From NCBI GenBank assembly GCA_965237575.1, contig CBDEGI010000004.1, positions 3,669,963 to 3,733,962 of the forward strand: DNA of 64,000 nt, in the 5' to 3' direction. Under the pieces are notes generated by a model that was given only the letters and a program-made list of their open reading frames with translations, was not told the DNA's origin and made no database searches. Numbering within the stretch: the stretch's first letter is position 1; each line of letters opens with the position of its first letter. The translations under genes were made by a program, and so were the position numbers. This DNA comes from Bryobacterales bacterium (GTDB lineage Bacteria > Acidobacteriota > Terriglobia > Bryobacterales > UBA6623). This document shows positions 2,947-16,038 of the stretch, in pieces.

Positions 2947-3031
2947 GGGGGCCAACCCCTGCTGCCCAACATTGTAGACCAAGACAGGCTTGGTGCTGCC
3001 AAGGATCGCAGCCACCGATCATATCAACGAT

Positions 3032-3322
3032 TCAGAAACCGGGGTCTTTTCGCGCCCCGTGCCAAATGTGGAGAACCCTAACGAGCCCTCGCTCGCTGTC
3101 CACTTCGTAGTAGATCGGGTACGGAGTGTGGATGAGTAGCCTGACCTGCTGGTCGCGTCGTACGGACGCTCCCCGCATCGGAAAGCTTCTCAAGGTCTCA
3201 ATGTGGTCGAGAAGTGCGCCACCCACCCGCTCGGCAGCAATGGGGTTGTCATCCGCGATGCATCCCAGGATGGATTGAAGGTCGGCTATCGCTTCTTCGG
3301 TGAGGACGACGCTGAAATCCAC
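3032..3322 (-). CDS. parE: ParE/RelE-family type II toxin
   Basis: 96 aa: MDFSVVLTEEAIADLQSILGCIADDNP...LLIHTPYPIYYEV...VRVLHIWHGAR. Size and motifs are typical of ParE. Confidence 0.8.
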   Translation of the reverse strand: MDFSVVLTEEAIADLQSILGCIADDNPIAAERVGGALLDHIETLRSFPMRGASVRRDQQVRLLIHTPYPIYYEVDSERGLVRVLHIWHGARKDPGF

Positions 3323-3468
3323 TGCGGCAGCCTCTTGCGCACGTCTTCCAACGGTTGCATACGACCTGCGGTCGAGTCGTCCCGGCCGCGCTGGATCGCC
3401 GCCAGCGTTTCAGCATCCTCCTCGCCGATGCCGGGGCGTGGGGATTCAGCCTTTTCGGCTTCGCTCAT
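3286..3468 (-). CDS. Putative ParD/CopG-like antitoxin (short)
   Basis: C-terminal 60 codons of ORF 3286..3828, starting at the ATG at 3468: MSEAEKAESPRPGIGEEDAETLAAIQRGRDDSTAGRMQPLEDVRKRL. It sits directly upstream of parE and overlaps it by 37 nt. The start is uncertain. Confidence 0.5.
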   Translation of the reverse strand: MSEAEKAESPRPGIGEEDAETLAAIQRGRDDSTAGRMQPLEDVRKRLPQWISASSSPKKR

Positions 3469-3636
3469 AACCTCAGGATAGCTCAAGACAGACGGGCCAC
3501 GGTGAATCGAATCGCTGACGAGACCCGGGCTGGGCCTCTTGACAGCCTCGTGGGAGATCAACTGCGACAAGGTGTCAGTTATGATTGGGTGCGGCGTTGT
3601 GACGGAGAGAAGATCGGTGATTAGTGGAGCCATGCC

Positions 3637-4131
3637 ATGACAGACGGTGAATTCAAGTCGTATATAGAGGATCGCTACCAGCACCAGGTCGACTGGTATG
3701 ACCGCAAGGCAGGAGTTAACCAGGCGATCTATAACCGGATGCAGTGGGCCATTATCATCCTGGCGGCGGTGACCCCGGTCCTTGTGGTGTTTGTGCTCGA
3801 CAAAGATCTGCCAACGGGACTGGACCACCTGCCGGCCATCACGTCAGCCGCCGTGGCCATCTTGACGGCTGCGCTGAAGACATTCAAGTACCAAGAAAAC
3901 TGGATCAGCTACCTCACGACGTGCGAGACTCTTCGCAAGGAAAAGCACTTTCTCGATGCGAACCTGGGTGACTACCACGGAGGTTCAGAGGAGAGTAAAA
4001 GAGCGACCTTTGTCGAGCGAGTCGAGAGCCTGATTTCACGAGAAAATACCGTATGGCTAACGACCCAGAAGACCGGAGGGCGGGCCAAGCCAGAGGAAGA
4101 TCAGCCGACCGGGAAGGCGGTGGAGGGTTGA
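3637..4131 (+). CDS. SLATT / DUF4231 family 2-TM protein
   Basis: 164 aa. Motifs: YIEDRYQHQVDWYDRKAGVNQAIYNRMQW, two hydrophobic helices, KTFKYQENWISYLTTCETLRKEKHF and FVERVESLISRENTVW, all as I remember DUF4231. GGAG lies 8 nt upstream of the ATG. Confidence 0.75.
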   Translation: MTDGEFKSYIEDRYQHQVDWYDRKAGVNQAIYNRMQWAIIILAAVTPVLVVFVLDKDLPTGLDHLPAITSAAVAILTAALKTFKYQENWISYLTTCETLRKEKHFLDANLGDYHGGSEESKRATFVERVESLISRENTVWLTTQKTGGRAKPEEDQPTGKAVEG

Positions 4132-4340
4132 TCTAGGGAAGCACGCAACGGACTGTTCAGAAGCCAGGACATTAGCGGTCCGCGACGGCCAGACCTCTGG
4201 CAAGATCGAGTCACCACATCAAAAGAGATGTCTTCATGCACTCCGCGCCCGGACCAAGCTCGGCGTCATCCGCCTCGCTCAGGCCACGCCCCGGGGCGGA
4301 CAACTCCTACGAGCAGGGTGGGCTGTCTCACAGCCGTCCT

Positions 4341-5714
4341 TCAGTTCGCAGCCAACACTTCGATTACCTCTTTGACAACGACATCCGCGTCGGACCGCGG
4401 ATCTTGCGCGCTGAGAAGACGGTGATGCAAGCGACCTTTGAGCTTCGGATGTGGCGCTGATCGGCCATTGGCCATGAACGGAAGGATTTTCACCTTGTTA
4501 CCACGCCTAAGTATCTCGTCCATCTCGTCGATGCAGTTCTCTGATGTCTCGTAACCTTCGGTCAGCAGCACGACGAAGTGCGTCGTCTTACTAAGCTGTT
4601 CGTTGAGTTCCCTCTTCCACTGTGCTCCACTGACATTTACGGTGTGGTACTCGTAGAGGTTGACGCCCTGTTGGCGAAGCGATTCGACGATGTTCTCAAC
4701 GAGCGCGCGGTGTGGTGGTTTGAGAGTGTGGCTGATAAAGACGAAGCATTTCGAGTAGCGCTTGGACTGGAGATACCGGCGAGCCTCTTCCCCGGCAAGG
4801 GCGGGACTGATTCTGAACATGGCGTTAGCCCGTGGCTCAATTAATTCGCGAAGCTCAATCCGATTGTTCCACCGCACAATGTCGTGCTGGTAGCCACCCG
4901 GGTGGCCCTGGAGGAGCCAAGGCAGTTCGGAATCGCCGCTTATCATGCGGATCGTAGGAACGCCCAGCCCGTGCGCAAGAGCGCAAATCTGGCGGCTCAC
5001 TAGGTCCTCCCTGCTCAGGTCCGCGATCACCAAGCCAGTGGAATGAAGAATCCGAAACACTTCGGTGTTGCTAAGATTTACGTCGCCCGATAGAACCCGC
5101 TCGTATCCAGCGTTGCCGAGGACGGTCTGCAGTAGGTCACCCAACTGGGAGGATTCAGGCCTATCGCGAGAGATTAGGCTCAGAGCCATGTTGGATGGCT
5201 CGTAGCTCATCGGCCTCAGGTGCTCAACGGCCCATTCCACCCACTGCCTGATGTTTGGCGCTATGAATGTGCGCCAGTTCCTTCTCTCTGGTAGTGGGTC
5301 GTCGACACCTCGGTCGAAAGGAATGTACACCTCACGCAGTCCCGACCTTGGTGGTGACCGAAATCGCGTTCCGCGCTCATAAAGGACAAAGCGCGGGATG
5401 TTAAGACGCTCCGCCAAACGGATTTCGAACAGGCTATAGGGCGAGCATCGTATGGATGCATCACCCGGGCCTTCTCCGGTGGCAGAATCACGCTCCGCTA
5501 GCACACACAGGAACAGATCACTGCGTCGCAGCAGCTCCTCGATGCGATTGATGTAGTAAGGCGGGTCGGCGCCAGGTTCCTCTGGCACGTCGACGAGGAG
5601 TTCGCTGGACTGGGCAATCTCCTCGCAGACCGAGAGATTCAATTCGACATCATGCGGTCGCCAACTATGGCTGAAGTAGACAGCGTATTTGTCAGCCTCT
5701 CTAGTATCCGTCAT
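4341..5714 (-). CDS. Multi-domain TIR protein (TIR-like / NDT-like Rossmann / TIR)
   Basis: Last 457 codons of ORF 4341..6143. The ATG at 5714-5712 overlaps the upstream stop as ATGA. Motifs: KYAVYFSHSW...SPYSLFEIRLA (aa 9-115), GLVIADLSREDLVSRQICALAHGLGVPTI (aa 175-265), and KCFVFISHT...VVLLTEGYETSENCIDEMDEIL (aa 322-415). Confidence 0.75.
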   Translation of the reverse strand: MTDTREADKYAVYFSHSWRPHDVELNLSVCEEIAQSSELLVDVPEEPGADPPYYINRIEELLRRSDLFLCVLAERDSATGEGPGDASIRCSPYSLFEIRLAERLNIPRFVLYERGTRFRSPPRSGLREVYIPFDRGVDDPLPERRNWRTFIAPNIRQWVEWAVEHLRPMSYEPSNMALSLISRDRPESSQLGDLLQTVLGNAGYERVLSGDVNLSNTEVFRILHSTGLVIADLSREDLVSRQICALAHGLGVPTIRMISGDSELPWLLQGHPGGYQHDIVRWNNRIELRELIEPRANAMFRISPALAGEEARRYLQSKRYSKCFVFISHTLKPPHRALVENIVESLRQQGVNLYEYHTVNVSGAQWKRELNEQLSKTTHFVVLLTEGYETSENCIDEMDEILRRGNKVKILPFMANGRSAPHPKLKGRLHHRLLSAQDPRSDADVVVKEVIEVLAAN

Positions 5715-6808
5715 GACCGCTGATTCGGGTCGACTGCCCTTAGATCGACCACATCGGAGGAAATGAGTTTTCGGAAAACCGCGTCGAGTGTCAGGCCTGC
5801 GATGAAGCCGACAGCCACACCGAACGGTACCAACCGACTGGCCTGCCTGACCAACTCGGCCTGGGAGACGATGGAGATTTGTGCCGTAATGAATAGCAAG
5901 CCCGCGACACCCCCTGCTATCAGGCCGAGTGCGGCGGTTGTAATCGTCGATCGGGATGTTAGGGGCATGGCTCCCTGGTGGAGGTCGAACACGAGTCGGA
6001 TGGTTGAGCCGGAGACGCCAGCCAGTGATGGAGAAAAGAAGAGCAACCAGAGAGCGCCCGACAAGTCTAAGCTCGAGCCCCAGGCGAGCGGGACACAGAT
6101 CATCGCCAGCAAGAACAAAACAACTGCCACGATTGCATGCCACTTGATCGATGTCTCCGCGCGGAGTTCTTCCAGCCGTCGTTGCTGCTCCTCATCAGCT
6201 GGCCGTGAAAGCTGATTCGTTAGGGTCTGGACAACCTCGTCGGCAAGATCAGATGACCAAGGCCGCCCCATCAGCGAAATCTCGTCCGCGCTGGGCAGGT
6301 CTCTTCCGGGCTGGAGGGCCTCCCAGACTTTGGCCGCCTCGCCGCCGAACGCTGCGAGAGCTACGATCGCCATTCGGTGCCCCATGGCGACGACACCGGC
6401 GATCATAGTCGAGTCCCCCCCGCCGAGAAGCAGAATCCCGTCTACTTCGCTTAGCGAATGGTAGAAGGATATCTCCCAGTCCAGGCTACGGTCAGGTCGC
6501 CAATCGAAAACCTGTTCGTGCGTCTGCTGCTCCCGAAACGCGGGTTTCTGGCCATGAAGAGGGTAGCGAACCTGAATGGAACGCGGCTTCGCCACCTGGC
6601 TGTCGATGTACCCTTCCACAATCGGAACCTCCAGAAAGTCGGCGCCACTTGAGTAAACAAGTATTCGAAATCCGGATTTCGCCAGTGCGCGCCCGAGATC
6701 CTTGGCGGCGACAGAGGCCTCGGTTGAGGTTTTCAAGTTCCCCACGATTGCGACGACGGGGGCCTCTGACTGGCGTAAGGTGGACACCCCCGAATTGTAC
6801 ACCAGCAT
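5711..6808 (-). CDS. SLOG/LOG-like Rossmann domain fused to a 4-TM C-terminal module
   Basis: 365 aa. N-terminal half: PVVAIVGN...LGRALAKSGFRILVYSSG...VDGILLLGGGDSTMIAGVVAMGHRMAIVALAAFGGEAA. Four hydrophobic helices lie at about aa 222-243, 250-272, 287-310 and 325-345. Confidence 0.7.
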   Translation of the reverse strand: MLVYNSGVSTLRQSEAPVVAIVGNLKTSTEASVAAKDLGRALAKSGFRILVYSSGADFLEVPIVEGYIDSQVAKPRSIQVRYPLHGQKPAFREQQTHEQVFDWRPDRSLDWEISFYHSLSEVDGILLLGGGDSTMIAGVVAMGHRMAIVALAAFGGEAAKVWEALQPGRDLPSADEISLMGRPWSSDLADEVVQTLTNQLSRPADEEQQRRLEELRAETSIKWHAIVAVVLFLLAMICVPLAWGSSLDLSGALWLLFFSPSLAGVSGSTIRLVFDLHQGAMPLTSRSTITTAALGLIAGGVAGLLFITAQISIVSQAELVRQASRLVPFGVAVGFIAGLTLDAVFRKLISSDVVDLRAVDPNQRS

Positions 6809-7136
6809 CTACAGAATGCCGAGGACTTACCCCGTTAGTGCTCCGAAACGAATCCTTTGCCCGAACGCCGTCAGGGCCCGTCGGCCTGGGGGGAACAGTC
6901 GCTGTTTCACTCTCGTCCCGGTCGCGCAAGGATCACACCCTCATTTACGCCGCGCGATCGCCTAACCCGGCTATCATTCGTATAGTCGGTCCGATCGTAG
7001 CGAACAGCCATGATCCGACTGGCCTTACGTACCCTTGACCTGGCGCAGGCCTGACAGACGAGTATCCGGAACGACCCAATCCAAAGCACTCATTCGGTCC
7101 GTGCGGCTCCCCTCGCAACGGCATCAGTAGAGCCCA

Positions 7137-7460
7137 ATGATCCCCAAAGAGCTGGGCAAGAAGATCCGCTTCATCCAGATCTACACCAGCAAGGCCGTGA
7201 ACGACGTGCTTGCCGGGGAGTACCACAGCGTGTTCAAAGGCCGCGGGATGGAGTTCGACGAGGTGCGCGAGTACACGCCGGGCGACGAGATCCGCACTAT
7301 CGACTGGAAGGTCACCGCCCGCGTCGGACACCCCTACGTCAAGCGCTACGTAGAGGAGCGCGAGCTGACGGTGATGTTCGTTGCCGACCTCTCTGCCTCG
7401 GGTACGTTCGGCAGCACCGAAAAGCGTAAGAACGAAGTCGCGGCGGAGTTGTGCGAAGGA
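7137..7460 (+). pseudogene. DUF58 (MoxR-associated, vWA-like) protein, N-terminal fragment of about 105 aa
   Basis: GEYHSVFKGRGMEFDEVREYTPGDEIRTIDWKVTARVGHPYVKRYVEERELTVMFVADLSASGTFGS. Family-like sequence ends at about 7455. Full-length DUF58 proteins are about 300 aa. Confidence 0.7.
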
Positions 7461-7464
7461 AGGC

Positions 7465-7686
7465 TTCGGGTTCATGCGCATCTACTCCGATCCAGCCGAC
7501 GCCGAGCCGTTTGATTACGCCGACGCGGTCGAGGACGGCGACACGGTCATGATCCCGCGTAGCTATCACCCGGTGGTGGCGTTTCCCGCCTACACGTTGA
7601 ACTACACCTGGATCCTGGCGGGCGAAGGGCGGACGTACGGCGCCTGGGCCGATGACCCCCGCTACGCCAGGATCAAGGAGGGGTAA
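7465..7686 (+). pseudogene. KduI/IolB-family (5-deoxy-glucuronate isomerase-like) C-terminal fragment
   Basis: RIYSDPADAEPFDYADAVEDGDTVMIPRSYHPVVAFPAYTLNYTWILAGEGRTYGAWADDPRYARI. Only the last 70 or so residues of the family are present, in a different frame from the DUF58 fragment. Confidence 0.5.
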
Positions 7687-7695
7687 GCGCTTGTC

Positions 7696-8724
7696 TCACT
7701 CCCCAGGCACTCGGGTACGGTCGTGGGGCTCGAGCTGCAGCCGCCACTCGAGCGGAACTTCTTCGGGCAGATAGCAGAGCTTGTCGTCACAGGCCTGATA
7801 GCGGAAGGAGCCTTCGATGACGACTTCGCCGAGCTCGTTGGTGAGCGCCGCGAGATCATCGGCCTTGCCGAGCAACACGTCGGCCATCAGCCGGAACGAG
7901 CCGTTGTAGACGGGCACAATCTCCTGAATCGCGGGCAAGTGCAGCAGCTCCGAGTCCGGGTAAGCGGGAGGGAAGGGCCGTAGGCCGGCCGCGTCGCTGA
8001 TGACCCACTCGCTGGGGATATAGCCTTCTACGCCCGGGGCATACACATGCATCTTCGGATTCAGGTGTACGTCGAGAACTAGCGCCACGCGGTTCTCCGC
8101 GCGTACGACTTCATCGCTCGCCCAGGTGCTGAGGCGCAGATGATTCGTCGCGTGCTCGGATCGCGTCGCTGCCGACTCGCCTTGCAACTCGCGCACGAGG
8201 ATATTGCCGGCCGTGAGCCGGTCGGCCGGGTCCTGTTCGAGAAACTTGGCCGTGACTTGACCCTGTGCGTCAATCAACAGGCGGCACGCCTGGGCGACGC
8301 CGTAGAAGCGATGCGCGGCCGGGACCGCTTCGTTGAGCAACCCGAACGCGCGGATCGTTTTCGAATCGGGATCGGAGAGCAACGGGTAGGTGATGTCGGC
8401 GCGCTCGGCGAAGTGGCGGAGGACATCGGCCGAGTCGAACGTGACCGCGGCAACGTGGATGCCCTCTTGCTCGAAGTTCTCTCGCTGCCGCTCAAGTTGA
8501 ACGAGCTGGTCTTTGCAGTAGATGCACCAGTCGGCCGAGCGTTGGAAGACCAGCAGCAGTCCTCGCGGACCACGTAGGGATTCGAACGTCTGTGGGTTGC
8601 CCTGCTGGTTTGCGAGCTCGAACGGCGGGATGCGCGTGCCGACGTCGGGACCCACGGGCTCGGCGTGTGCCGGCCGCGCGAGCAGGAGAGTCGATAACAC
8701 CGCGCTGAGGATGAAGGTTCGCAA
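7696..8724 (-). CDS. Secreted peroxiredoxin/redoxin (AhpC-TSA) fused to a DsbD N-terminal-like domain
   Basis: Signal peptide MRTFILSAVLSTLLLARPAHA, redoxin motif LLVFQRSADWCIYCKDQ, and C-terminal FRYQACDDKLCYLPEEV typical of the DsbD alpha domain. Confidence 0.8.
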   Translation of the reverse strand: MRTFILSAVLSTLLLARPAHAEPVGPDVGTRIPPFELANQQGNPQTFESLRGPRGLLLVFQRSADWCIYCKDQLVQLERQRENFEQEGIHVAAVTFDSADVLRHFAERADITYPLLSDPDSKTIRAFGLLNEAVPAAHRFYGVAQACRLLIDAQGQVTAKFLEQDPADRLTAGNILVRELQGESAATRSEHATNHLRLSTWASDEVVRAENRVALVLDVHLNPKMHVYAPGVEGYIPSEWVISDAAGLRPFPPAYPDSELLHLPAIQEIVPVYNGSFRLMADVLLGKADDLAALTNELGEVVIEGSFRYQACDDKLCYLPEEVPLEWRLQLEPHDRTRVPGE

Positions 8725-8781
8725 GGCTGCCCGGGTCTCGAGAGGTCACTGCTCAGCCCTTAGGTTAGCGGAGTGAGGAGT

Positions 8782-8806
8782 AGCGCCTGCGGTGTGTGCG
8801 TGTTCC
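8782..8806 (-). promoter_or_regulatory. Candidate ECF-type promoter (GGAAC-N16-CGCT) upstream of the peroxiredoxin gene
   Basis: The minus strand reads GGAAC acgcacacaccgcagg CGCT, about 60-80 nt upstream of the ATG at 8724. This is a motif match only. Confidence 0.25.
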
Positions 8807-8859
8807 CCACCTGTCGGGTGTTGGAAGAGTAAAGGCTCAAACACCCCGCCGGGGCTCGG

Positions 8860-8991
8860 ACCGGTGGTTGGATGGCCAGGTTGCGCCGAGCGGCAACCGC
8901 GGACTTCCGTCCGCGGTTCGGAAGCTTCGATGGCGCGGTTGCGAGGGGCCGCGGCATCACAAATCCGTATGTAAGGATTCTGACGAATCGC
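8860..8991. repeat. Composite intergenic repeat, copy 2 (module inverted relative to copy 1)
   Basis: 8961-8991 AAATCCGTATGTAAGGATTCTGACGAATCGC matches 1124-1153. Hairpin 8897-8916 is the reverse complement of 1198-1217. Confidence 0.6.
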
Positions 8992-8996
8992 TTAGG

Positions 8997-9797
8997 TCAG
9001 CGGCCGGAACGCCCGACGAAGAGCGGCAGGTAATGTCCCAGGGCATAGCCCAGCAGAGCCACGGCCAGAGCGATCCCGAGGTGTGTCAGCGCGATGTGGG
9101 GGGCGGTGTGAAGGCTGCATCCGAAATGCAGAACAGTCATGCCGACCAGCCCGGCCATCAATCCCGCCCCCGCGCCGGCCACCCCCAGCGATAGGACGGC
9201 CCCGCGGCGCAACAGCAGACTAATCAAAGCCGAGGCGGGGAACGAGTACATCAACCCGGTTCGGAAGCACATCCAACTCTGGGGCAGGAACGTGCCGCTC
9301 ACGTCCCAGGGGAAGGCGACGGCGACGGCGAGGAACAGCGCCGCCAACAATGACAAGAACAGCCGCGCGGGCGGCAGCAATCGCGGCGAGCCGGGGACCA
9401 TCTCGCGGCTCAGCGTCACCGACAACAGCAAGATGACCGCGCCCACCACGCCCAAGATGCCGGCGAAACGCAAGGCACCCATCTCGACCGCGCCACCGAC
9501 GCCCGTCATCACTATGAAGATGCCTGAGAGGACCGCGTAAACCAGCAGGAAGGCAGCCGTCAACAGCGAAGCGCCGGGCAGCGGCCGGACCGCCTCGAGC
9601 GAGCCCACGACCGATGACTTGATCTTGGCTTCGACCTCGGGGGCGACACGTTCGGACAAGTCACGCCGGGTGAGGAAGTCCCACACCTTGCGGCAGGGGG
9701 CGCAATTCTCCAAGTGTTCACGGACGGCCTGGGGCAGTTGGCCCCAGCCTTCCGGCGCCGTGCGGTGCAGGTGTTCGCCGGCTTCAGAGCACGTCAT
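8997..9797 (-). CDS. Anti-sigma factor: zf-HC2 N-terminus plus a polytopic membrane domain (NrsF/DUF1109-like)
   Basis: HLENCAPCRKVWDFL matches the H-x3-C-x2-C motif and is followed by about 6 hydrophobic helices. The start overlaps the sigma gene stop (ATGA at 9794-9797). Confidence 0.7.
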   Translation of the reverse strand: MTCSEAGEHLHRTAPEGWGQLPQAVREHLENCAPCRKVWDFLTRRDLSERVAPEVEAKIKSSVVGSLEAVRPLPGASLLTAAFLLVYAVLSGIFIVMTGVGGAVEMGALRFAGILGVVGAVILLLSVTLSREMVPGSPRLLPPARLFLSLLAALFLAVAVAFPWDVSGTFLPQSWMCFRTGLMYSFPASALISLLLRRGAVLSLGVAGAGAGLMAGLVGMTVLHFGCSLHTAPHIALTHLGIALAVALLGYALGHYLPLFVGRSGR

Positions 9798-10477
9798 CGC
9801 GTCGTTCCCACCTTGGAGGACTCCTGCAACAGGACTCGCAGTTTCTCGTACGCCCGGTGCGCCTTCTGCTTGACGGCGCCCACGGTGCTGCCGGTGGCGT
9901 TGGCGACCTCCTGGAGGCTCATTCCCGAAACTTTTAGCATTCTGATGACCACTTGCTGGCTTTCGGGCAGTTGCTCGAGTAGCCGCCAGATGTCATAGTC
10001 AGCCGCATCCGGGCCCCGGCCGAACGATTGCCGCGGCTCGACCGGCTCATCGAAGGCCAGCTCCTTGGCGTCGATCCGTTTCCGGCGGCGATAGGCGTCG
10101 ATGCGCGTGTGGCGCGCAATCGCGAAGATCCACGGCAACACGGGACTACCCGGCCGGTAGGTGTGCCGCGCCTTATGGATCCGAAGCCAGCAATCCTGCA
10201 GCATGTCTTCGGCGAAGGGGCGCGTCTGCAGCGGTCCAGCCAGGAACCGCAGCAACATAGGCGACACGCTTTCGACCAACGCGGAAGCGGCGTCTCGGTC
10301 CGCATTCTGATAACCCGTCATCAATTCCTGGAGGCGCGCGGCGTCCGGCCGTTCCTCGGCTTTTGCTGAAGCCGCGCCCGTCTCCATGGCAGACTCCGTC
10401 GTCGTCACCGAATCCGCACGCGGGGACACACCGCCGCCATAAGCTGCCTCGCCTCTTGGTTCGCCGCCGTCAGGCAT
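9794..10477 (-). CDS. ECF-type RNA polymerase sigma-70 family factor
   Basis: Region 2: DMLQDCWLRIHKARHTYRPGSPVLPWIFAIARHTRIDAYRRR. Region 4: LPESQQVVIRMLKVSGMSLQEVANATGSTVGAVKQKAHRAYEKL. The N-terminal start is uncertain. Confidence 0.85.
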   Translation of the reverse strand: MPDGGEPRGEAAYGGGVSPRADSVTTTESAMETGAASAKAEERPDAARLQELMTGYQNADRDAASALVESVSPMLLRFLAGPLQTRPFAEDMLQDCWLRIHKARHTYRPGSPVLPWIFAIARHTRIDAYRRRKRIDAKELAFDEPVEPRQSFGRGPDAADYDIWRLLEQLPESQQVVIRMLKVSGMSLQEVANATGSTVGAVKQKAHRAYEKLRVLLQESSKVGTTR

Positions 10478-10652
10478 GAGGTTACGGGACGAGAGTGACC
10501 CGAAAAAGAGCGAACGACCACTCGGGGCGCAGGCTGGAGCGCCGCCCGGAAACTGCTCTCAGACCCTTGACACCCATGGTACACTTTCGGCGCAGGGCGG
10601 CTTACTGGCAACGGCTTGTTTGCGGCGAGGGTTGCGGTCGGCAAATTTCCCC

Positions 10653-10681
10653 TTGCCAATAAGGAGATTCGTCCGTATAAT
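10653..10681 (+). promoter_or_regulatory. Near-consensus sigma-70 promoter TTGCCA-17nt-TATAAT
   Basis: TTGCCA at 10653-10658, a 17-nt spacer, and TATAAT at 10676-10681. It points toward the repeat element and the dksA-like gene about 580 nt downstream. Confidence 0.5.
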
Positions 10682-10930
10682 CGATACATTCCCGCACGGC
10701 TGCCGGGCACGGGGGTGCTGCGGCAGCATCGTTTGGCGATTTCGCAAACGGGGTTCGATAGCGGCGTAGGCCGCTGTTCCTCAAACGGCTAGCCACTGGG
10801 ACACGGTTGGTCGTTCCCGCTCGAGGGACGAAGCAGAGGGCTTGGCTTTTTGGCTCCGCTCGTAAGCAAGAACCTGTAACCAGATCGGTTTGCGCTGGGT
10901 CTAACAGACCTGGATCAAAACGACGATAGT

Positions 10931-11200
10931 GGGGTATCCATTTGACTCAGGTGACCACAACATACTGTGGTTGGCCATTGGCGGCCCCCGGAAAGGCTTG
11001 CCGATAGCACCACGTTTCCAAGCCTGCGATGGCCATGGCGCGTGCGTAATCCTTGATCGGCCCGAAACGCAGCCTCGTGGCCCAATTGCCTGCAGACCGG
11101 CGTCTGGCGCCCCAGGGTGCATTCTGGGTGCAGTGTGCTGGCGTCCATGGATCGACCAAACCACAACGCCTAGGGGCTACCTGAGTCAAGTGGATACCCC
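10931..11200. repeat. 270-bp element with 22-nt terminal inverted repeats (MITE or structured RNA), family copy 1
   Basis: GGGGTATCCATTTGACTCAGGT (10931-10952) pairs with ACCTGAGTCAAGTGGATACCCC (11179-11200), with one T:G mismatch. It is flanked by the direct repeat CGACGATA (10921-10928 and 11204-11211). Homologous to 40668-40917. Confidence 0.65.
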
Positions 11201-11260
11201 ATTCGACGATATAGTGACTTGCCCGCCGCCCTGTGGGCACGTCGGACTGGAAGGTGCATC

Positions 11261-11671
11261 ATGGCGAAAGGGACAACGAAGGCTCTAAACAAGGCTCAAA
11301 TCAGGCGCTTCAAGGGAATGCTCGAAGCAAAGGCCGAGGAGATCCGCCAAAACCTGCAGTCGGCGAAAGCCGCCAAGGCGCTCGCCCGCGGGCAAGAGCC
11401 CGTCAATATGGAAGAGCTGCCGGGGCAGAGCCACGAGGAGTGGATCTTCCTGAACCGCAACAACATCGATGCGATGCTGTTGCGGGAGATTCAAGAAGCC
11501 CTGAGCCGCATTGAAGAGAACGCGTTCGGCATCTGCCTGGAATGCGAGGAGAGCATGTCGCTCAAGCGATTGCAGGCGATTCCGTGGGCGCGCTACTGCG
11601 TCGCGTGCCAGGAAGAACTCGCGGGTTATCCCGAAGAGTCGACCCGGCAGAAGCGCTCGTACTCGTTCTGA
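11261..11671 (+). CDS. DksA/TraR-family C4 zinc-finger protein
   Basis: ATG at 11261 within ORF 11219..11671, preceded by GGAAGG. Contains CLECEESMSLKRLQAIPWARYCVACQEE. Confidence 0.8.
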   Translation: MAKGTTKALNKAQIRRFKGMLEAKAEEIRQNLQSAKAAKALARGQEPVNMEELPGQSHEEWIFLNRNNIDAMLLREIQEALSRIEENAFGICLECEESMSLKRLQAIPWARYCVACQEELAGYPEESTRQKRSYSF

Positions 11672-11756
11672 CGCGAAGGCGAAACGCAGCCTCCGACGCA
11701 ATCCAGTCACGGCACTTCGAAAAAAAGTCTCGGGCCTCGATCAGGGCTCCCAGCAA

Positions 11757-12467
11757 TCAGGCTTGGGGGCCCTTTTCCATTGCGGCCAGCTCATCGAGAT
11801 CCAGCCTACCGGTATAGATCGCCATCCCAAGGGCGCAGTGAATGCCGAGCCCGGTGAGTTCTTCGATCTCCTCGAGGGAGGTGATGCCCCCGGCCGCGGT
11901 GAGTTCCTTGCGGGTGGCTTGGCGTAGGCGGCGGTACCAGCCGAGATCGGTACCTTCGAGCATGCCCTCTTTGTCCACGTAGGTGCAGAGAAAGCCGCCG
12001 CAGTAGGGCTCGAGAGTGGCGATCACATCTTCGGCGGAGAGCGCCGTCGCTTCCCGCCATCCTTTGACGACGATCCGTCCGCCTTTCGAGTCGAGGGCCA
12101 ACAGAACGCGGCCGACACCGACAGCCTGGCCCAGTTCGTCCAGGAAGGCCTCGTCGACTCCGCCATCCTTGTACGCGGCCGTGCCTACGATGACCTTGGA
12201 AGCGCCTGCCTCGACCAGCGCGAGCGCGCGCTCGACCGAACGCACTCCGCCGCCGACGCGCGTCACCGCCTGCGATGCCAGGTGCCGGACGATGTGGTCG
12301 TTCGAGCCCGTGCCCATGGCAGCATCGAGATCGATCACTTGAATTTCAGGGAAGGCGGAGAACTTCCGGAGCATCGCATCGGGCGGGTCGCCTTCGAGCG
12401 CCTTGTCACGGCCCTGGATGAGCTGCACCACCTTGCCCTCCATCAGGTCGATGCAGGGAATGATCAC
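11757..12467 (-). CDS. hisA: HisA/HisF-family TIM-barrel protein (ProFAR isomerase-like)
   Basis: MIIPCIDLMEGKVVQLIQG...VIDLDAAMG...VGGGVRS...TAAGGITSLEEI. GTG start at 12467. Confidence 0.7.
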   Translation of the reverse strand: MIIPCIDLMEGKVVQLIQGRDKALEGDPPDAMLRKFSAFPEIQVIDLDAAMGTGSNDHIVRHLASQAVTRVGGGVRSVERALALVEAGASKVIVGTAAYKDGGVDEAFLDELGQAVGVGRVLLALDSKGGRIVVKGWREATALSAEDVIATLEPYCGGFLCTYVDKEGMLEGTDLGWYRRLRQATRKELTAAGGITSLEEIEELTGLGIHCALGMAIYTGRLDLDELAAMEKGPQA

Positions 12468-12931
12468 CGCGGCACCTCGCTGAGGCAGCGCACCGCTTCC
12501 GTTGCGTAGAAGCGGACGGCGTCAGGGATGTTGGCATCTCGGGCGGCGACCTCCGCGAGAGTGAACCAACGGATGTCGTTGTGCTCGGCCTCGGCCAGCG
12601 TGACGCGCTCCGTCGCCGCGCGGGCGAAGTAGATCATCCCCAAGTGATGGTGCTCTCCGGAGATGTGATGCACGTCGAGGTACGCTGGGGCGATGAGAAA
12701 GCGCGTGCCGGCGCAGTCGAGGGATGGACGCTTACCGTACAGCTCGATGGTCAGTCCGCTCTCCTCGGCGACCTCGCGCAACGCGGCTTGCTCGGGATCT
12801 TCACCGGGATCGATATGGCCGCCGAGAGGTAGCCACTTTCCCAGTTGCTTGTGGTCGACCAGCAACACCTTCTCGTTGTACACCACAAAAACCGAGACGG
12901 TGAAGTCGAGGTAGTAGTTGAGGTGCGGCAT
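12464..12931 (-). CDS. NUDIX hydrolase
   Basis: Nudix box GGHIDPGEDPEQAALREVAEESGL. The stop overlaps the hisA-like start. Confidence 0.85.
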   Translation of the reverse strand: MPHLNYYLDFTVSVFVVYNEKVLLVDHKQLGKWLPLGGHIDPGEDPEQAALREVAEESGLTIELYGKRPSLDCAGTRFLIAPAYLDVHHISGEHHHLGMIYFARAATERVTLAEAEHNDIRWFTLAEVAARDANIPDAVRFYATEAVRCLSEVPR

Positions 12932-13056
12932 CGAGGAGCGGTGGCTCGCAACGTGTCGCGAGGAAACCGTTAGTGTAGATCAGATGCTTTGGATGTCTCG
13001 CGTCCGCTTCGAGTCTGAGGTGGCGTAAGCCGCCAATCCGGCAAGCGTCTGCCCTA

Positions 13057-13902
13057 CTAGGGCAGGCTCACGGCCGGGTCCTCCGCCACCACCCGATCGC
13101 TCCGCGGCCCGATATGAATGTGCGGTCCCGTCGACTGCCCCGGCACGCTGCTGCGGAACGCGATGAACGGGATCTCCCACTCGTAGAGCAACTCGATCAG
13201 GAAGATGCCTTCCTCATCATCGGGGTGCACCGCCACGTCGAGCCGCCCGGCGTGGTCGAACCCCATCGACCGGTGCATCTCCGTCTCGCCCCGCGCGCTG
13301 ATCGGAAGCGCCTGGCCAAACTGGCTGAAGAACGCCGCATCGATCGCGAGCGCATCCTCTTCCCAGCTCCCTCCCGCGACCTCCGAGGAGAACGCCAAGT
13401 CTTCTTCCTCCAACTCGTCCAGCCGGTCTTCGGCGCGCGCCATCAGTCCCATCTCGCGGACCAGCTTCGAGCGTTGCTCCGCCAACTCGTACTGCCGTTC
13501 ACCCCAGTCGGCGGCCTCCTTCACCTTCTTGAGTTGCTGCAGGGGCAGCGCCCCGGCCTCGGCCAGTTTGCGAGCCCCGGCCAAGTCCTCGCGCGACATC
13601 TCGCGCAGCACCGCGACCGCCCGCATCATCTCCGGCAGGCGGCCCTCGGTCAGCTCGCCACTCATCAGGGTCTCTCGCACGACTTGCTCGAGCCGCTTGC
13701 GCTCGGCCTTACCCCGTGCCTGCTGGATCGCGTTCTCGGGGAGCACTCCGGCCTCGACCAGCGCCTGCACGCGCTTCTCCTCGGGCCCGGCCGGCGGCGG
13801 ATCTTGCGCGACGGCAGGGCAAGCCGTCCACGCCACCACAAGAATCCAACAAAGCCGTTGCACAGTTTCGAAGCGGGTTCTAAGGGGCGCCCGTGGGCGC
13901 AT
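13057..13902 (-). CDS. Secreted hypothetical protein (coiled-coil region plus C-terminal His-rich motif)
   Basis: ORF 13057..13974. The internal start MRPRAPLRTRFETVQRLCWILVVAWTACPAVAQ looks like a signal peptide. The C-terminus contains HRSMGFDHAGRLDVAV and GPHIHIG. Confidence 0.55.
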   Translation of the reverse strand: MRPRAPLRTRFETVQRLCWILVVAWTACPAVAQDPPPAGPEEKRVQALVEAGVLPENAIQQARGKAERKRLEQVVRETLMSGELTEGRLPEMMRAVAVLREMSREDLAGARKLAEAGALPLQQLKKVKEAADWGERQYELAEQRSKLVREMGLMARAEDRLDELEEEDLAFSSEVAGGSWEEDALAIDAAFFSQFGQALPISARGETEMHRSMGFDHAGRLDVAVHPDDEEGIFLIELLYEWEIPFIAFRSSVPGQSTGPHIHIGPRSDRVVAEDPAVSLP

Positions 13903-14047
13903 GGTCGTGCGCTTGCTGGCATCGTGTCCGCCACTCGCGCACGCGTCAGGGGCCAAGCTCATTCTAGCGGCCACTCCTCACACAGCGCTAAGATGGGCTG
14001 CAAGGTAGCTTGCGGGTAAGGTACTTGCGAGCAAGGTACGGGGCCGA

Positions 14048-14389
14048 ATGACGGATTGGGAAATCGCTGTCGGGGCGGCGCAGGAGCGTAAGGCAACCGA
14101 TCTGGTCGTGCTCGACATCAAGGAAGTCAGCACGTTTACCGACACCTTCGTGCTGTGCACGGGGCTCAACGGACGCCAGGTGCAAGCGATCTCCAACGCG
14201 ATCGAAAGGGCGCTCAGGGAAGAAGGCGTCCGCGCGATCGGGATCGAAGGCCGTCAGAACGCCGAATGGGTGCTGATGGACTACGGCGACTTCCTCGTGC
14301 ACATTTTTTCACCGCAGGCCCGCGAGTTCTACGATCTCGAGCGTCTGTGGAAACGCGCCCCGCGCATCCCGGTCCCCGACGCCGCCTGA
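14048..14389 (+). CDS. rsfS: Ribosome silencing factor RsfS (iojap)
   Basis: DLVVLDIKEVSTFTDTFVLCTGLNGRQVQAISNAIE...EWVLMDYGDFLVHIFSPQAREFYDLERLW. Confidence 0.9.
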   Translation: MTDWEIAVGAAQERKATDLVVLDIKEVSTFTDTFVLCTGLNGRQVQAISNAIERALREEGVRAIGIEGRQNAEWVLMDYGDFLVHIFSPQAREFYDLERLWKRAPRIPVPDAA

Positions 14390-14417
14390 ACGGGGCCCGC
14401 CGGCCAGCGTCCCAGCC

Positions 14418-14822
14418 GTGAACATCCACCTCGTTTACATCGGCAAGCCCCGCAACGCCGACGCCAACCGTCTGGCCGCCGAGTACGCCCGCCGCATCAC
14501 CCGCTTCTGCCGCTTCGACATGATCGAGGCCAAAGACGAGAAGAGCGCCGGCCGTTACCCCAAGGCCGTCCGTGTCGTTCTCGACCCCGAGGGCCCGATG
14601 ATGAGTTCCCAGGAGTTGGCTTCGTTCCTCGAAAAGAACTCGAGCGAAATCGCCTTCTTCGTGGGCGGCGCCGAGGGCTTCAGCGACGAGTTTCGCCGCG
14701 GCGCCGACCGCCTGTTGTCGCTCTCGAAGATGACCCTGCCGCACGAGCTGGCAAGGGTGGTCCTCACCGAGCAGATCTACCGCGCTTTCACGATCCTGAG
14801 CGGCCACCCTTACCCCAGGTAA
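14418..14822 (+). CDS. rlmH: 23S rRNA (pseudouridine1915-N3)-methyltransferase RlmH
   Basis: GTG start. FFVGGAEGFSDEF...LSLSKMTLPHELARVVLTEQIYRAFTILSGHPY. The rsfS-rlmH order is conserved. Confidence 0.85.
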   Translation: MNIHLVYIGKPRNADANRLAAEYARRITRFCRFDMIEAKDEKSAGRYPKAVRVVLDPEGPMMSSQELASFLEKNSSEIAFFVGGAEGFSDEFRRGADRLLSLSKMTLPHELARVVLTEQIYRAFTILSGHPYPR

Positions 14823-14913
14823 AGGCGGGCCCCTGTGCCCGCCCACGGTGCAGCGGCATTGCTTGTAACCGGCGTGCTAAAGACAACTAAAAAATCAACC
14901 AGGAGAACCACAC

Positions 14914-16038
14914 ATGGATCCCGTCGCCAACGCAGTTCTCGGAATCGTCTTCCTGGCCCTTGGGGCCGCCGGCACGTTCTTGATGTACCACCTGTGGGGT
15001 TACCCCTTCGACCACGAGACCCATACGAGTGAAGCGCCGCCGCGGCTGATGCGTATCCATCGCTTGATCGGGTGGCTTTACCTGATCCTCTATCTCTACT
15101 TCATGAGCCAGATGGTGCCGCGGCTGTGGAACTACCAGATCGAGTTCCCGGCGCGTACGGTAGCCCACCTCACGCTGGGGATGACGATCGGTGCGCTGAT
15201 CGTGATCAAGATCGCCATCGTGCGCTTTTTCAAGCATATGGAGTCCACGCTGGTTCCGTTGCTGGGCACGGCGCTGCTGGTGTGCACGATTCTGCTGATC
15301 GGTCTCTCCGCGCCGTTCGCCTTCCGCGAAGCCTATCTGCGGGCACAGCAGACCGGAGGCTCGTTCAGCGACGAGACTCTCGAGCGCGTCCGGTCGCACC
15401 TGGTGCTGGCGGGCCTCGACGACCCCGAGACCCTTGCCCACTTGGCCTCGCCTACCGGACTCGAAGCCGGCCAGGGGGTCTTGCTGGCCGAGTGCGTGAC
15501 GTGTCACGACCTGCGCACCGTTCTGGCCCGGCCGCGCACGCCCGAGAACTGGCATCAGACCGTCCAGCGCATGGCCGACCGCTCCACCCTGCTCGCGCCG
15601 ATCGACGAAGACCAGCAGTGGGAAGTGACCGCCTACTTGATTGCGATCTCGCCCGAACTACAACGATCCGCTCGTGAGAGGAAGAAGCGCCTCGATCAAG
15701 AGGAGGCTTCGCAGCGGGCCGCGACGCAGGTTGCGGGTATGGCAGAGCAAGGGGCGGGCCAGGCAGTGCAAGGGCCAGGGACGCAAGCGGCGGGCCCTGG
15801 AACGAGAGGAGCGGGTGAAGCCGCGCCGGCCCCCGTCGACCCCGAGCAAGCGCGGCAGCTTTATGAGACTCGCTGCGCCCTGTGCCACCCACTAACCGTC
15901 GTCGAAGCCGCGCCCCCGACCTCCGACGCCGAGACCCGAGCGCTGGTCTCGCGCATGGTCAGCAACGGCATGCCCGCCACCGAGGAAGAGTTGGTGCAGC
16001 TCATCGACCACCTCAACCGAGCGTTTGTGAACAGATAA
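14914..16038 (+). CDS. Membrane-anchored di-haem c-type cytochrome-like protein
   Basis: Four N-terminal hydrophobic helices, then two CXXCH motifs (AECVTCHDL and TRCALCHPL). Confidence 0.65.
   Translation: MDPVANAVLGIVFLALGAAGTFLMYHLWGYPFDHETHTSEAPPRLMRIHRLIGWLYLILYLYFMSQMVPRLWNYQIEFPARTVAHLTLGMTIGALIVIKIAIVRFFKHMESTLVPLLGTALLVCTILLIGLSAPFAFREAYLRAQQTGGSFSDETLERVRSHLVLAGLDDPETLAHLASPTGLEAGQGVLLAECVTCHDLRTVLARPRTPENWHQTVQRMADRSTLLAPIDEDQQWEVTAYLIAISPELQRSARERKKRLDQEEASQRAATQVAGMAEQGAGQAVQGPGTQAAGPGTRGAGEAAPAPVDPEQARQLYETRCALCHPLTVVEAAPPTSDAETRALVSRMVSNGMPATEEELVQLIDHLNRAFVNR

Follow-up and report, generated by a model that had tools for sequence, protein, structure and literature searches.

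A SLOG-four-helix gene and a tandem-TIR gene form a candidate Thoeris-like module with a facultative SLATT neighbour in a Bryobacterales bacterium

We examined three adjacent genes, here called A, B and C, in a 64,000-nucleotide (nt) stretch of DNA from a Bryobacterales bacterium (GenBank assembly GCA_965237575.1, contig CBDEGI010000004.1, positions 3,669,963 to 3,733,962). This whole stretch is referred to as the window, and positions are counted from its first letter. Gene A is predicted to encode a SLOG-type Rossmannoid domain joined to a four-helix membrane module (SLOG-4TM; TM, transmembrane), gene B a tandem-TIR protein, and gene C a SLATT protein with two TM helices (2-TM). With about even confidence, we propose that the locus is a Thoeris-like TIR-signalling abortive-infection module with the A-B operon as its core. 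The proposal is built on the domain identities, the residues at catalytic positions, the co-conservation and translational coupling of A and B, a variable association with SLATT and an island-like indel.

A preliminary description of this DNA, made from the sequence alone, had placed three open reading frames (ORFs) here and had noted an ATGA at 5711-5714. All three ORFs are present on the strands listed in Table 1, as is the ATGA, in which the TGA stop of A shares bases with the ATG start of B. Through this overlap, B is translationally coupled to A. Genes C and B converge, with 209 nt between their stops. At E ≤ 0.001, the threshold for all homologue counts given here, we found 203 homologues of A (at 53-72% identity), 170 of B and 470 of C, and the matches listed align over most of their length. 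Because the families are sizeable and the alignments cover most of each protein, the three genes are real rather than chance ORFs. The guanine-plus-cytosine (G+C) content is ~0.57-0.59 across about 3000 to 7000 and 0.64-0.66 in the flanks.

Searches of gene A against Pfam, NCBIfam and PADLOC returned no family match. Weak ShosA and DprA matches at residues 3-50 are at most consistent with the SLOG superfamily, and when a profile of 40 homologues was used in a hidden Markov model (HMM) search of the PDB, the LOG-family structures 1rcu and 1wek fell below threshold and nothing was significant. We modelled the protein with AlphaFold2 on the 40-homologue alignment and analyzed the model with Foldseek against the PDB, DSSP and hydropathy plots. 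The model (pLDDT 87) contains an alpha/beta domain at residues 18-180 and a long connecting helix at 186-244 that leads into the four-helix membrane module, with further helices at 249-277, 285-311 and 316-352. Hydropathy analysis gave three strongly hydrophobic segments in addition to the amphipathic helix 249-277. Foldseek matched the model to TM1055 (1rcu, 1.2e-6) and to the SLOG domain of BcThsA with 3'-cyclic ADP-ribose (3'cADPR) (7uxs, 5.5e-4), as well as to a Moco carrier protein, LOG enzymes, DprA, PpnN and the N-terminal domains of TRPM2, TRPM4 and TRPM8; SLOG-superfamily proteins or SLOG-bearing TRPM channels account for nearly all of the top 50 matches. Two glycine-rich loops, GGGxST (129-134) and FGG (154-156), are invariant, and so are polar or charged residues within the membrane helices (R271, D275, Q310, D342 and R346). 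The motifs quoted earlier for this protein (PVVAIVGN, LLLGGGDSTMIAG and AAFGGEA) were all found in it. The predicted SLOG fold and the modelled helices thus support the description of A as a SLOG-4TM protein, through structural rather than sequence evidence. When A was searched against Pfam, PADLOC and NCBIfam, no SIR2 or ThsA match appeared at E ≤ 1, and in the same three collections neither A nor C matched a Macro domain. Nor did A, which has four helices only, match a Pfam LSDAT or TRP family.

The AlphaFold2 model of gene B (pLDDT 90.5) contains three alpha/beta domains, at residues ~10-165, 176-300 and 325-456. The last of these is a TIR domain, as the preliminary description had it: the Pfam TIR_2 match (3.2e-15) covers residues 325-433, the family profile matched the plant TIR AT1G72930 (2.4e-8) and the TIR of CRISPR-associated Cat1 (1.8e-7) in the PDB, and E397 aligns on the catalytic glutamate of solved TIR NADases. 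Residues 1-320 gave nothing significant against Pfam, NCBIfam and PADLOC, and neither did the N-terminal domain in Pfam and PDB HMM searches. We deepened the alignment of this domain with the 87 relatives recovered by an exhaustive search and compared it with TIR profiles using hhalign. It aligned to the C-terminal TIR of B itself (91.9% probability, E 6.9e-7, 80 columns) and to the validated Thoeris TIR cluster 2734565194 (93.2%, E 3e-7, 93 columns), and in both comparisons E97 (in LFEIRLAE) sits on the catalytic glutamate column. E97 and E397 are invariant in sets of 40 and 33 B homologues. A TIR-like N-terminal domain, also claimed previously, is therefore supported, profile-profile comparison being the method that detects it. 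An assignment of this domain specifically to the cyclic ADP-ribose (cADPR)-producing TIR cluster is unproven, since the C-terminal TIR matches that cluster equally well.

The middle domain of B, in contrast to its earlier label of nucleoside-deoxyribosyltransferase-like, had no family match in the PDB profile search or in profile-profile tests against TIRs. In the model it is an alpha/beta domain of beta-alpha-beta repeats. The TIR, DrHyd and SLOG superfamilies have been united previously as one Rossmannoid clade; a DrHyd/PF05014-type identity for the middle domain is not supported, as no profile match was obtained in the PDB search or the TIR comparisons. RF2 and dehydrogenase matches in the PDB HMM searches with the A, B N-terminal and B middle profiles were treated as noise. 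A whole-chain Foldseek search with B returned TIR matches mixed with tandem-domain proteins such as EngA and did not resolve the matching domain. The N-terminal and middle domains also occur as a pair in stand-alone proteins of ~300 amino acids (aa) (P0292 and P0299, about 310 aa), and they are found upstream of TIR_2 and a caspase-like CHAT protease in single-chain fusions of about 830-960 aa (P0301, P0306, P0312, P0313 and P0317). Given the stand-alone pair and the CHAT fusions, this cassette is a reusable unit. The fusions are a single-chain echo of type IV Thoeris, which combines a TIR with a caspase-like protein.

Gene C was assigned by direct family matches, in agreement with its first description as a DUF4231/SLATT protein. 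It matched PF14015 (DUF4231) at 7.5e-18 (65.3 bits against a cut-off of 24.7), PF18181 (SLATT_1) at 4.9e-17 (62.5 bits against 26.3) and the NCBIfam SLATT_1 model NF033634 at 6.5e-36 (123.2 bits against 41). Relatives of C at 57-59% identity are found in two loci with a TIR + SLATT layout, one beside a TIR_2-FGE-sulfatase protein (L076) and the other near a ThsB_TIR/TIR_2 protein (L077).

The preliminary description had not recognised this architecture. A TIR gene with a "4TM SLOG" effector is, however, listed by Yirmiya et al. (bioRxiv, 3 December 2025, 10.64898/2025.12.03.692087), who scanned ~600 million proteins and reported 29 putative Thoeris types, seven new ones among them being validated. 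In Tables S1/S2 of that work, the effector class "4TM SLOG" (or "SLOG and 4TM") is linked to TIR cluster 2691454909. Residues 324-454 of gene B are 51% identical (E 7e-41) to the "4TM SLOG" TIR of Ca. Nitrospira nitrosa COMA1, and three loci that we retrieved independently through gene A (L054, ga0163163_1000007748; L044, ga0206810_101818; L037, ga0307479_1000074511) are Table S1 "4TM SLOG" entries. Given this identity and the shared contigs, the A-B family is already catalogued as a candidate Thoeris type, unnamed and unvalidated. The families are the same: the window TIR fits cluster 2691454909, and the effector consists of SLOG and four helices. The window copy adds a SLATT neighbour, and in the text and tables that we consulted, Yirmiya et al. 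do not describe the tandem-TIR architecture, the accessory genes or the presence/absence polymorphism reported below. The preliminary description remains right that none of the systems characterised by experiment has this layout.

We collected 72 loci with A homologues, partly in genomes and metagenomes and partly through look-ups of identical proteins. Their genes were annotated by tblastn and by iterated HMM searches, and near-duplicates were weeded out manually. Among the 52 distinct loci with sufficient sequence downstream of A, gene B lies directly downstream on the same strand in ~41. These A-B loci span several phyla: they belong to Terriglobia/Acidobacteriota, to Nitrospira (Nitrospirota), to Planctomycetota-type contigs and to unclassified metagenomes. 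What accompanies A and B is variable. Of the ~29 A-B systems with flanks, ~10 have an adjacent SLATT gene (seven convergent and 30-210 nt past the B stop, as in the window, and three upstream on the same strand), about 8-10 carry an unrelated ~180-aa protein that we call X, and ~11 have neither. When each flank had to reach at least 700 nt, which left 19 loci, the corresponding numbers were 6, 7-8 and 7. The conserved core is the A-B two-gene unit, to which SLATT is facultative. The three-gene circuit put forward in the preliminary description is thus retained in its domain logic, with a TIR generator, a SLOG-membrane sensor and a SLATT neighbour. The fixed triad is not: its synteny extends to A and B, and SLATT stands beside only about one third of the A-B loci.

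Protein X (about 180-207 aa) carries the motifs GHRxDxPxRxPPRFP and GAxxGGDxLF and is encoded directly after B, or before A together with a SLATT_3/DUF4231 gene, in about one third of the A-B loci (L002 12539-13078; L006 12398-12934; L011 8990-9613; L041 8413-8949; L046 2567-3163; L050 4897-5430). X seems to serve as an accessory in place of SLATT. Pfam and PDB searches with X found nothing, and profile comparison showed no similarity between X and the SLOG domain of A. Its GxAxGGD loop may be DprA/YpsA-like.

Elsewhere, A homologues have toxin-antitoxin, extra TIR, DUF4062, IS66 and HNH neighbours. In L019 (contig_52171, 94 kb; 3003-15174), a homologue 68% identical to A, without B, lies between two IS66 copies, and the nearby genes encode a CAP12-PCTIR_TIR protein, an HNH protein and a DUF4062-squalene-cyclase-repeat protein; the region looks like a scrambled defence island. 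No homologue of A was found in the phage collection. The sole plasmid relative (L079, Streptomyces europaeiscabiei plasmid NZ_CP107864.1, 391234-392352, 28% identity) is flanked by two tyrosine recombinases and a large TPR protein, with no adjacent TIR gene.

Comparison of the window with close relatives showed that A and B are polymorphic in this lineage. In L073, as in L074, the gene order is that of the window (DUF1501, SLATT, KduI fragment, AhpC), and the nucleotide flanks are 93% identical. By blastn, window positions 3556-4195 correspond to L073 4920-5563 and positions 7457-9808 to L073 5566-7925, so that L073 joins 5563 to 5566 where the window carries a 3.26-kb segment with B, A and a 5' DUF58 fragment. 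Of the two gene fragments at the right edge of this segment, the DUF58 one falls within the indel and the KduI one also occurs in L073, which suggests that A and B were gained, or lost, as a block together with a short remnant of foreign flanking DNA. This precise presence/absence, the dip in G+C content and the defence-type neighbours seen elsewhere are behaviour of a defence island and support the proposed Thoeris-like function.

The same comparisons bear on whether SLATT belongs to the system. The main rival to our proposal holds that A and B alone are the system, and that SLATT shares a variable hot spot with them but has an unrelated function, as either an orphan or an effector for another signalling enzyme encoded elsewhere in the genome. 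Several observations weigh against SLATT coupling and favour this rival. L073 keeps an intact SLATT gene without A-B, and so does L075, a more distant relative, at the same DUF1501-flanked site. In the sister strains L015 and L017, a 276-bp element resembling a miniature inverted-repeat transposable element (MITE) splits SLATT after codon 8, with a 9-bp target duplication (TCAAGTCGT), while A-B stays intact. SLATT lies on the strand opposite to A-B in the window, and about two thirds of the A-B loci are without it. Moreover, the SLATT_1 family is far larger (470 matches against about 200) and pairs with other TIRs. Given SLATT genes without A-B in L073 and L075 and the split genes in L015 and L017, in this lineage SLATT does not depend on A-B and A-B can do without SLATT, and gene C is not an obligate part of the system. 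Against the rival stand ~10 independent A-B loci with an adjacent SLATT gene, mostly in a tight convergent arrangement, which is improbable by chance for a 150-aa gene; the other neighbours of these SLATT-bearing loci are unrelated from one locus to the next. Strain comparisons thus favour an unrelated SLATT and recurrent tight adjacency argues against it, and we regard this explanation as possible, if on the whole somewhat unlikely. By analogy with type VII Thoeris, gene C is most likely a facultative second membrane effector that would be tuned to the same or a related signal.

Table 1. Features of the locus and its surroundings (window coordinates unless another locus is named).
Feature	Position	Strand	Evidence or remark
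Gene A, SLOG-4TM protein, 365 aa, predicted signal-gated membrane effector	5711..6808	-	ORF, homologues, AlphaFold2 model
SLOG (Rossmannoid) domain of A, residues ~17-185	6254..6760	-	Foldseek, invariant columns
Membrane module of A, residues ~219-352, four helices	5753..6154	-	DSSP on model, hydropathy, conservation
Gene B, tandem-TIR protein, 457 aa	4341..5714	-	ORF, homologues, AlphaFold2 model
B N-terminal divergent TIR-like domain, residues 1-168, invariant E97	5211..5714	-	hhalign
B middle alpha/beta domain, residues 172-312, invariant H248	4779..5201	-	Model secondary structure
B C-terminal TIR_2 domain, residues 318-457, catalytic-position E397	4344..4763	-	Pfam TIR_2
Gene C, SLATT_1/DUF4231 2-TM protein, 164 aa, convergent with B, facultative neighbour	3637..4131	+	Pfam, NCBIfam, homologues
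3.26-kb segment (B, A, 5' DUF58 fragment)	4196..7456		Precisely absent from L073 by blastn, flanks 93% identical
DUF58 fragment, profile positions 1-65 of 216	7137-7514	+	Pfam 1.1e-26; inside 3.26-kb indel
KduI/IolB C-terminal fragment	7381-7686	+	Common to window and L073
ParE toxin gene	3032-3322	-	Pfam 1.9e-14
115-aa ORF upstream of and overlapping ParE, presumed antitoxin	3289-3633	-	No family match
MITE-like element, 276 bp	10927-11202; L015 13156-13431		~23-nt terminal inverted repeats

We propose that B would sense infection and, through a putative NADase or cyclase activity of its two TIR domains in one chain, convert NAD+ into an ADP-ribose (ADPR)-derived second messenger. The cytoplasmic SLOG domain of A would bind this messenger, and the change would be relayed by the long connecting helix to the four-helix membrane module, which may then open or oligomerise as a pore or channel, so that membrane integrity or potential collapses and the presumed anti-phage response follows. 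Where present, C would be an additional membrane effector like that of type VII. This scheme has precedents: a SLOG domain found in a TIR context acts as a ligand sensor, ADPR is bound by the SLOG domain of TRPM2 (Ofir et al. preprint), and SLATT was earlier predicted to be a membrane effector regulated by ADPR derivatives. Rare Thoeris operons are reported in which two effectors share one signal (10.64898/2025.12.03.692087).

Set beside known systems, the locus combines familiar parts differently. Type I Thoeris (ThsA SIR2-SLOG with ThsB TIR, 3'cADPR) likewise pairs a TIR generator with a SLOG-sensing effector, and the match of the A model to 7uxs is of this kind; A differs in having no SIR2 or ThsA match and in a predicted output through membrane helices rather than an NADase. 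The TM-Macro effector of type II Thoeris, set off by His-ADPR, resembles A as a membrane-disrupting effector responding to a TIR product, whereas the sensor of A is SLOG rather than Macro and its membrane helices are C-terminal. As described in papers that cite it, type III Thoeris (van den Berg et al. 2024) has several TIR genes and a SLOG-containing effector, and thus shares multiple TIR domains and a SLOG effector with A-B. In B, however, the TIRs are fused, and the type III effector is described there as having a NucS nuclease output and no abortive-infection phenotype. Type VII Thoeris consists of a TIR and the SLATT effector ThsH, uses canonical cADPR and has been validated (10.64898/2025.12.03.692087). 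The likeness, at the level of the SLATT domain, is a SLATT 2-TM gene adjoining a TIR gene; the window TIR differs in being cotranscribed with a SLOG-4TM effector, with SLATT convergent and facultative. Among the Table S1 entries available to us, the type VII TIRs are in clusters 2734565194, 2713147196, 2598792572 and 2727267812, and the C-terminal TIR of B is in 2691454909. TRPM2-type channels also fuse SLOG to a membrane module, and TRPM2, TRPM4 and TRPM8 are among the Foldseek matches of A. They differ from A, which has four helices rather than a 6-TM tetrameric pore, and full-chain TM-scores are low, at 0.11-0.16 on the target. The relation of A to TRPM2 is one of logic, not of membership.

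A bolder version of the proposal is that tandem-TIR B produces one diffusible messenger derived from ADPR, perhaps canonical cADPR, that gates both the SLOG four-helix channel and the SLATT pore at once. We suggest cADPR because SLATT, which responds to cADPR in type VII Thoeris, is repeatedly found paired with the A-B core. We consider this dual gating a speculative extension that is unlikely as it stands. If it were true, A would be a minimal prokaryotic counterpart of ADPR-gated TRPM2, and the locus would represent a new validated Thoeris type in which a fused TIR pair pre-forms the TIR-TIR active-site interface.

Other results weigh against a Thoeris-like function. The "4TM SLOG" representatives from Streptomyces sp. 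GKU 895 and Ca. Nitrospira nitrosa COMA1 are scored "No" for defence in E. coli MG1655 (Table S2, 10.64898/2025.12.03.692087). These negative tests in a heterologous host are the only experiments on the class, whose function is therefore unproven. Roughly 11 distinct A homologues have no adjacent B; some of these lie by IS66 or repeat scars, some form a divergent clade at 48-50% identity, and one Methylococcaceae and one Leptolyngbyaceae contig carry A without B. The SLOG assignment depends on a predicted structure, with the sequence matches to LOG-family structures below threshold. A promoter and terminator scan around the locus gave nothing above chance and no assignable signal. Finally, a PADLOC check of the locus, suggested in the preliminary description, was answered only in the negative: the models of PADLOC-DB v2 (2023), the defence-model library used here, recognise neither A nor B.

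Two minor rivals assign other roles to the pair. In the first, B is an NAD+-depleting effector, like the TIRs of CBASS, Pycsar and prokaryotic Argonaute (pAgo) systems, and A is a membrane-anchored sensor or regulator, or an independent toxin. Many bacterial TIRs are indeed NADase effectors (10.64898/2025.12.03.692087), B has two catalytic-type glutamates, and no signal is reported for the class. However, the genes that could switch on a TIR effector, encoding a cyclase, SMODS or Argonaute, are missing from the locus, and A carries a SLOG domain, a ligand sensor in TIR contexts, whereas B has no SAVED, STING or CARF-type sensor domain in Pfam. The N-terminal-middle-TIR cassette is, moreover, fused to CHAT proteases, which are effectors themselves, and this fits a generator or sensor role for the cassette. 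We consider the effector reading improbable. The second rival, that A-B is a non-immune NAD/ADPR-responsive membrane signalling pair such as a stress- or redox-linked ion channel, draws on the two class members that gave no defence in E. coli, on the many A-B loci amid housekeeping genes and on A homologues without any TIR, and we give it little credence in view of the strain-level presence/absence, the G+C dip, the patchy phyla, the toxin-antitoxin, TIR and insertion-sequence neighbours, and the selection of the TIR cluster by Yirmiya et al. for enrichment near known defence genes (10.64898/2025.12.03.692087).

The surroundings of the locus hold further variable elements. The segment 2995-3555, which contains the ParE gene, is absent from L073 and constitutes a separate indel beside the SLATT gene. 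The MITE-like element, with its terminal inverted repeats GTGGGGTATCCAnTTGACTCAGGT, occupies different sites in the window and in L015 and L017, and is at neither site in L016; from these differences the element appears to be currently mobile. In L015, a gene for a large LRR-Roc-COR (ROCO-type GTPase) protein lies at 1-1029, ~9 kb beyond A and corresponding to ~15.9-16.9 kb of the window. Around the locus, neither an Rfam scan nor a search for repeats exceeded chance, and no rRNA or Rfam match was obtained for the window. DUF1501-type neighbours are no more than a hint of Planctomycetota-like genomes.

The present PADLOC-DB v2 (2023) models overlook the A-B class in genome annotation. Handles on a class that has failed heterologous tests are provided by the fusion of two TIRs in one chain, by the optional accessories SLATT and X and by the natural variants (L073; L015 and L017), and the recurrence of SLATT as an optional partner hints at canonical cADPR as a possible signal. 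Should the A-B class prove functional, it would be a Thoeris type that couples a SLOG sensor directly to a membrane module, with the design logic of the ADPR-gated TRPM2 channel of animals.

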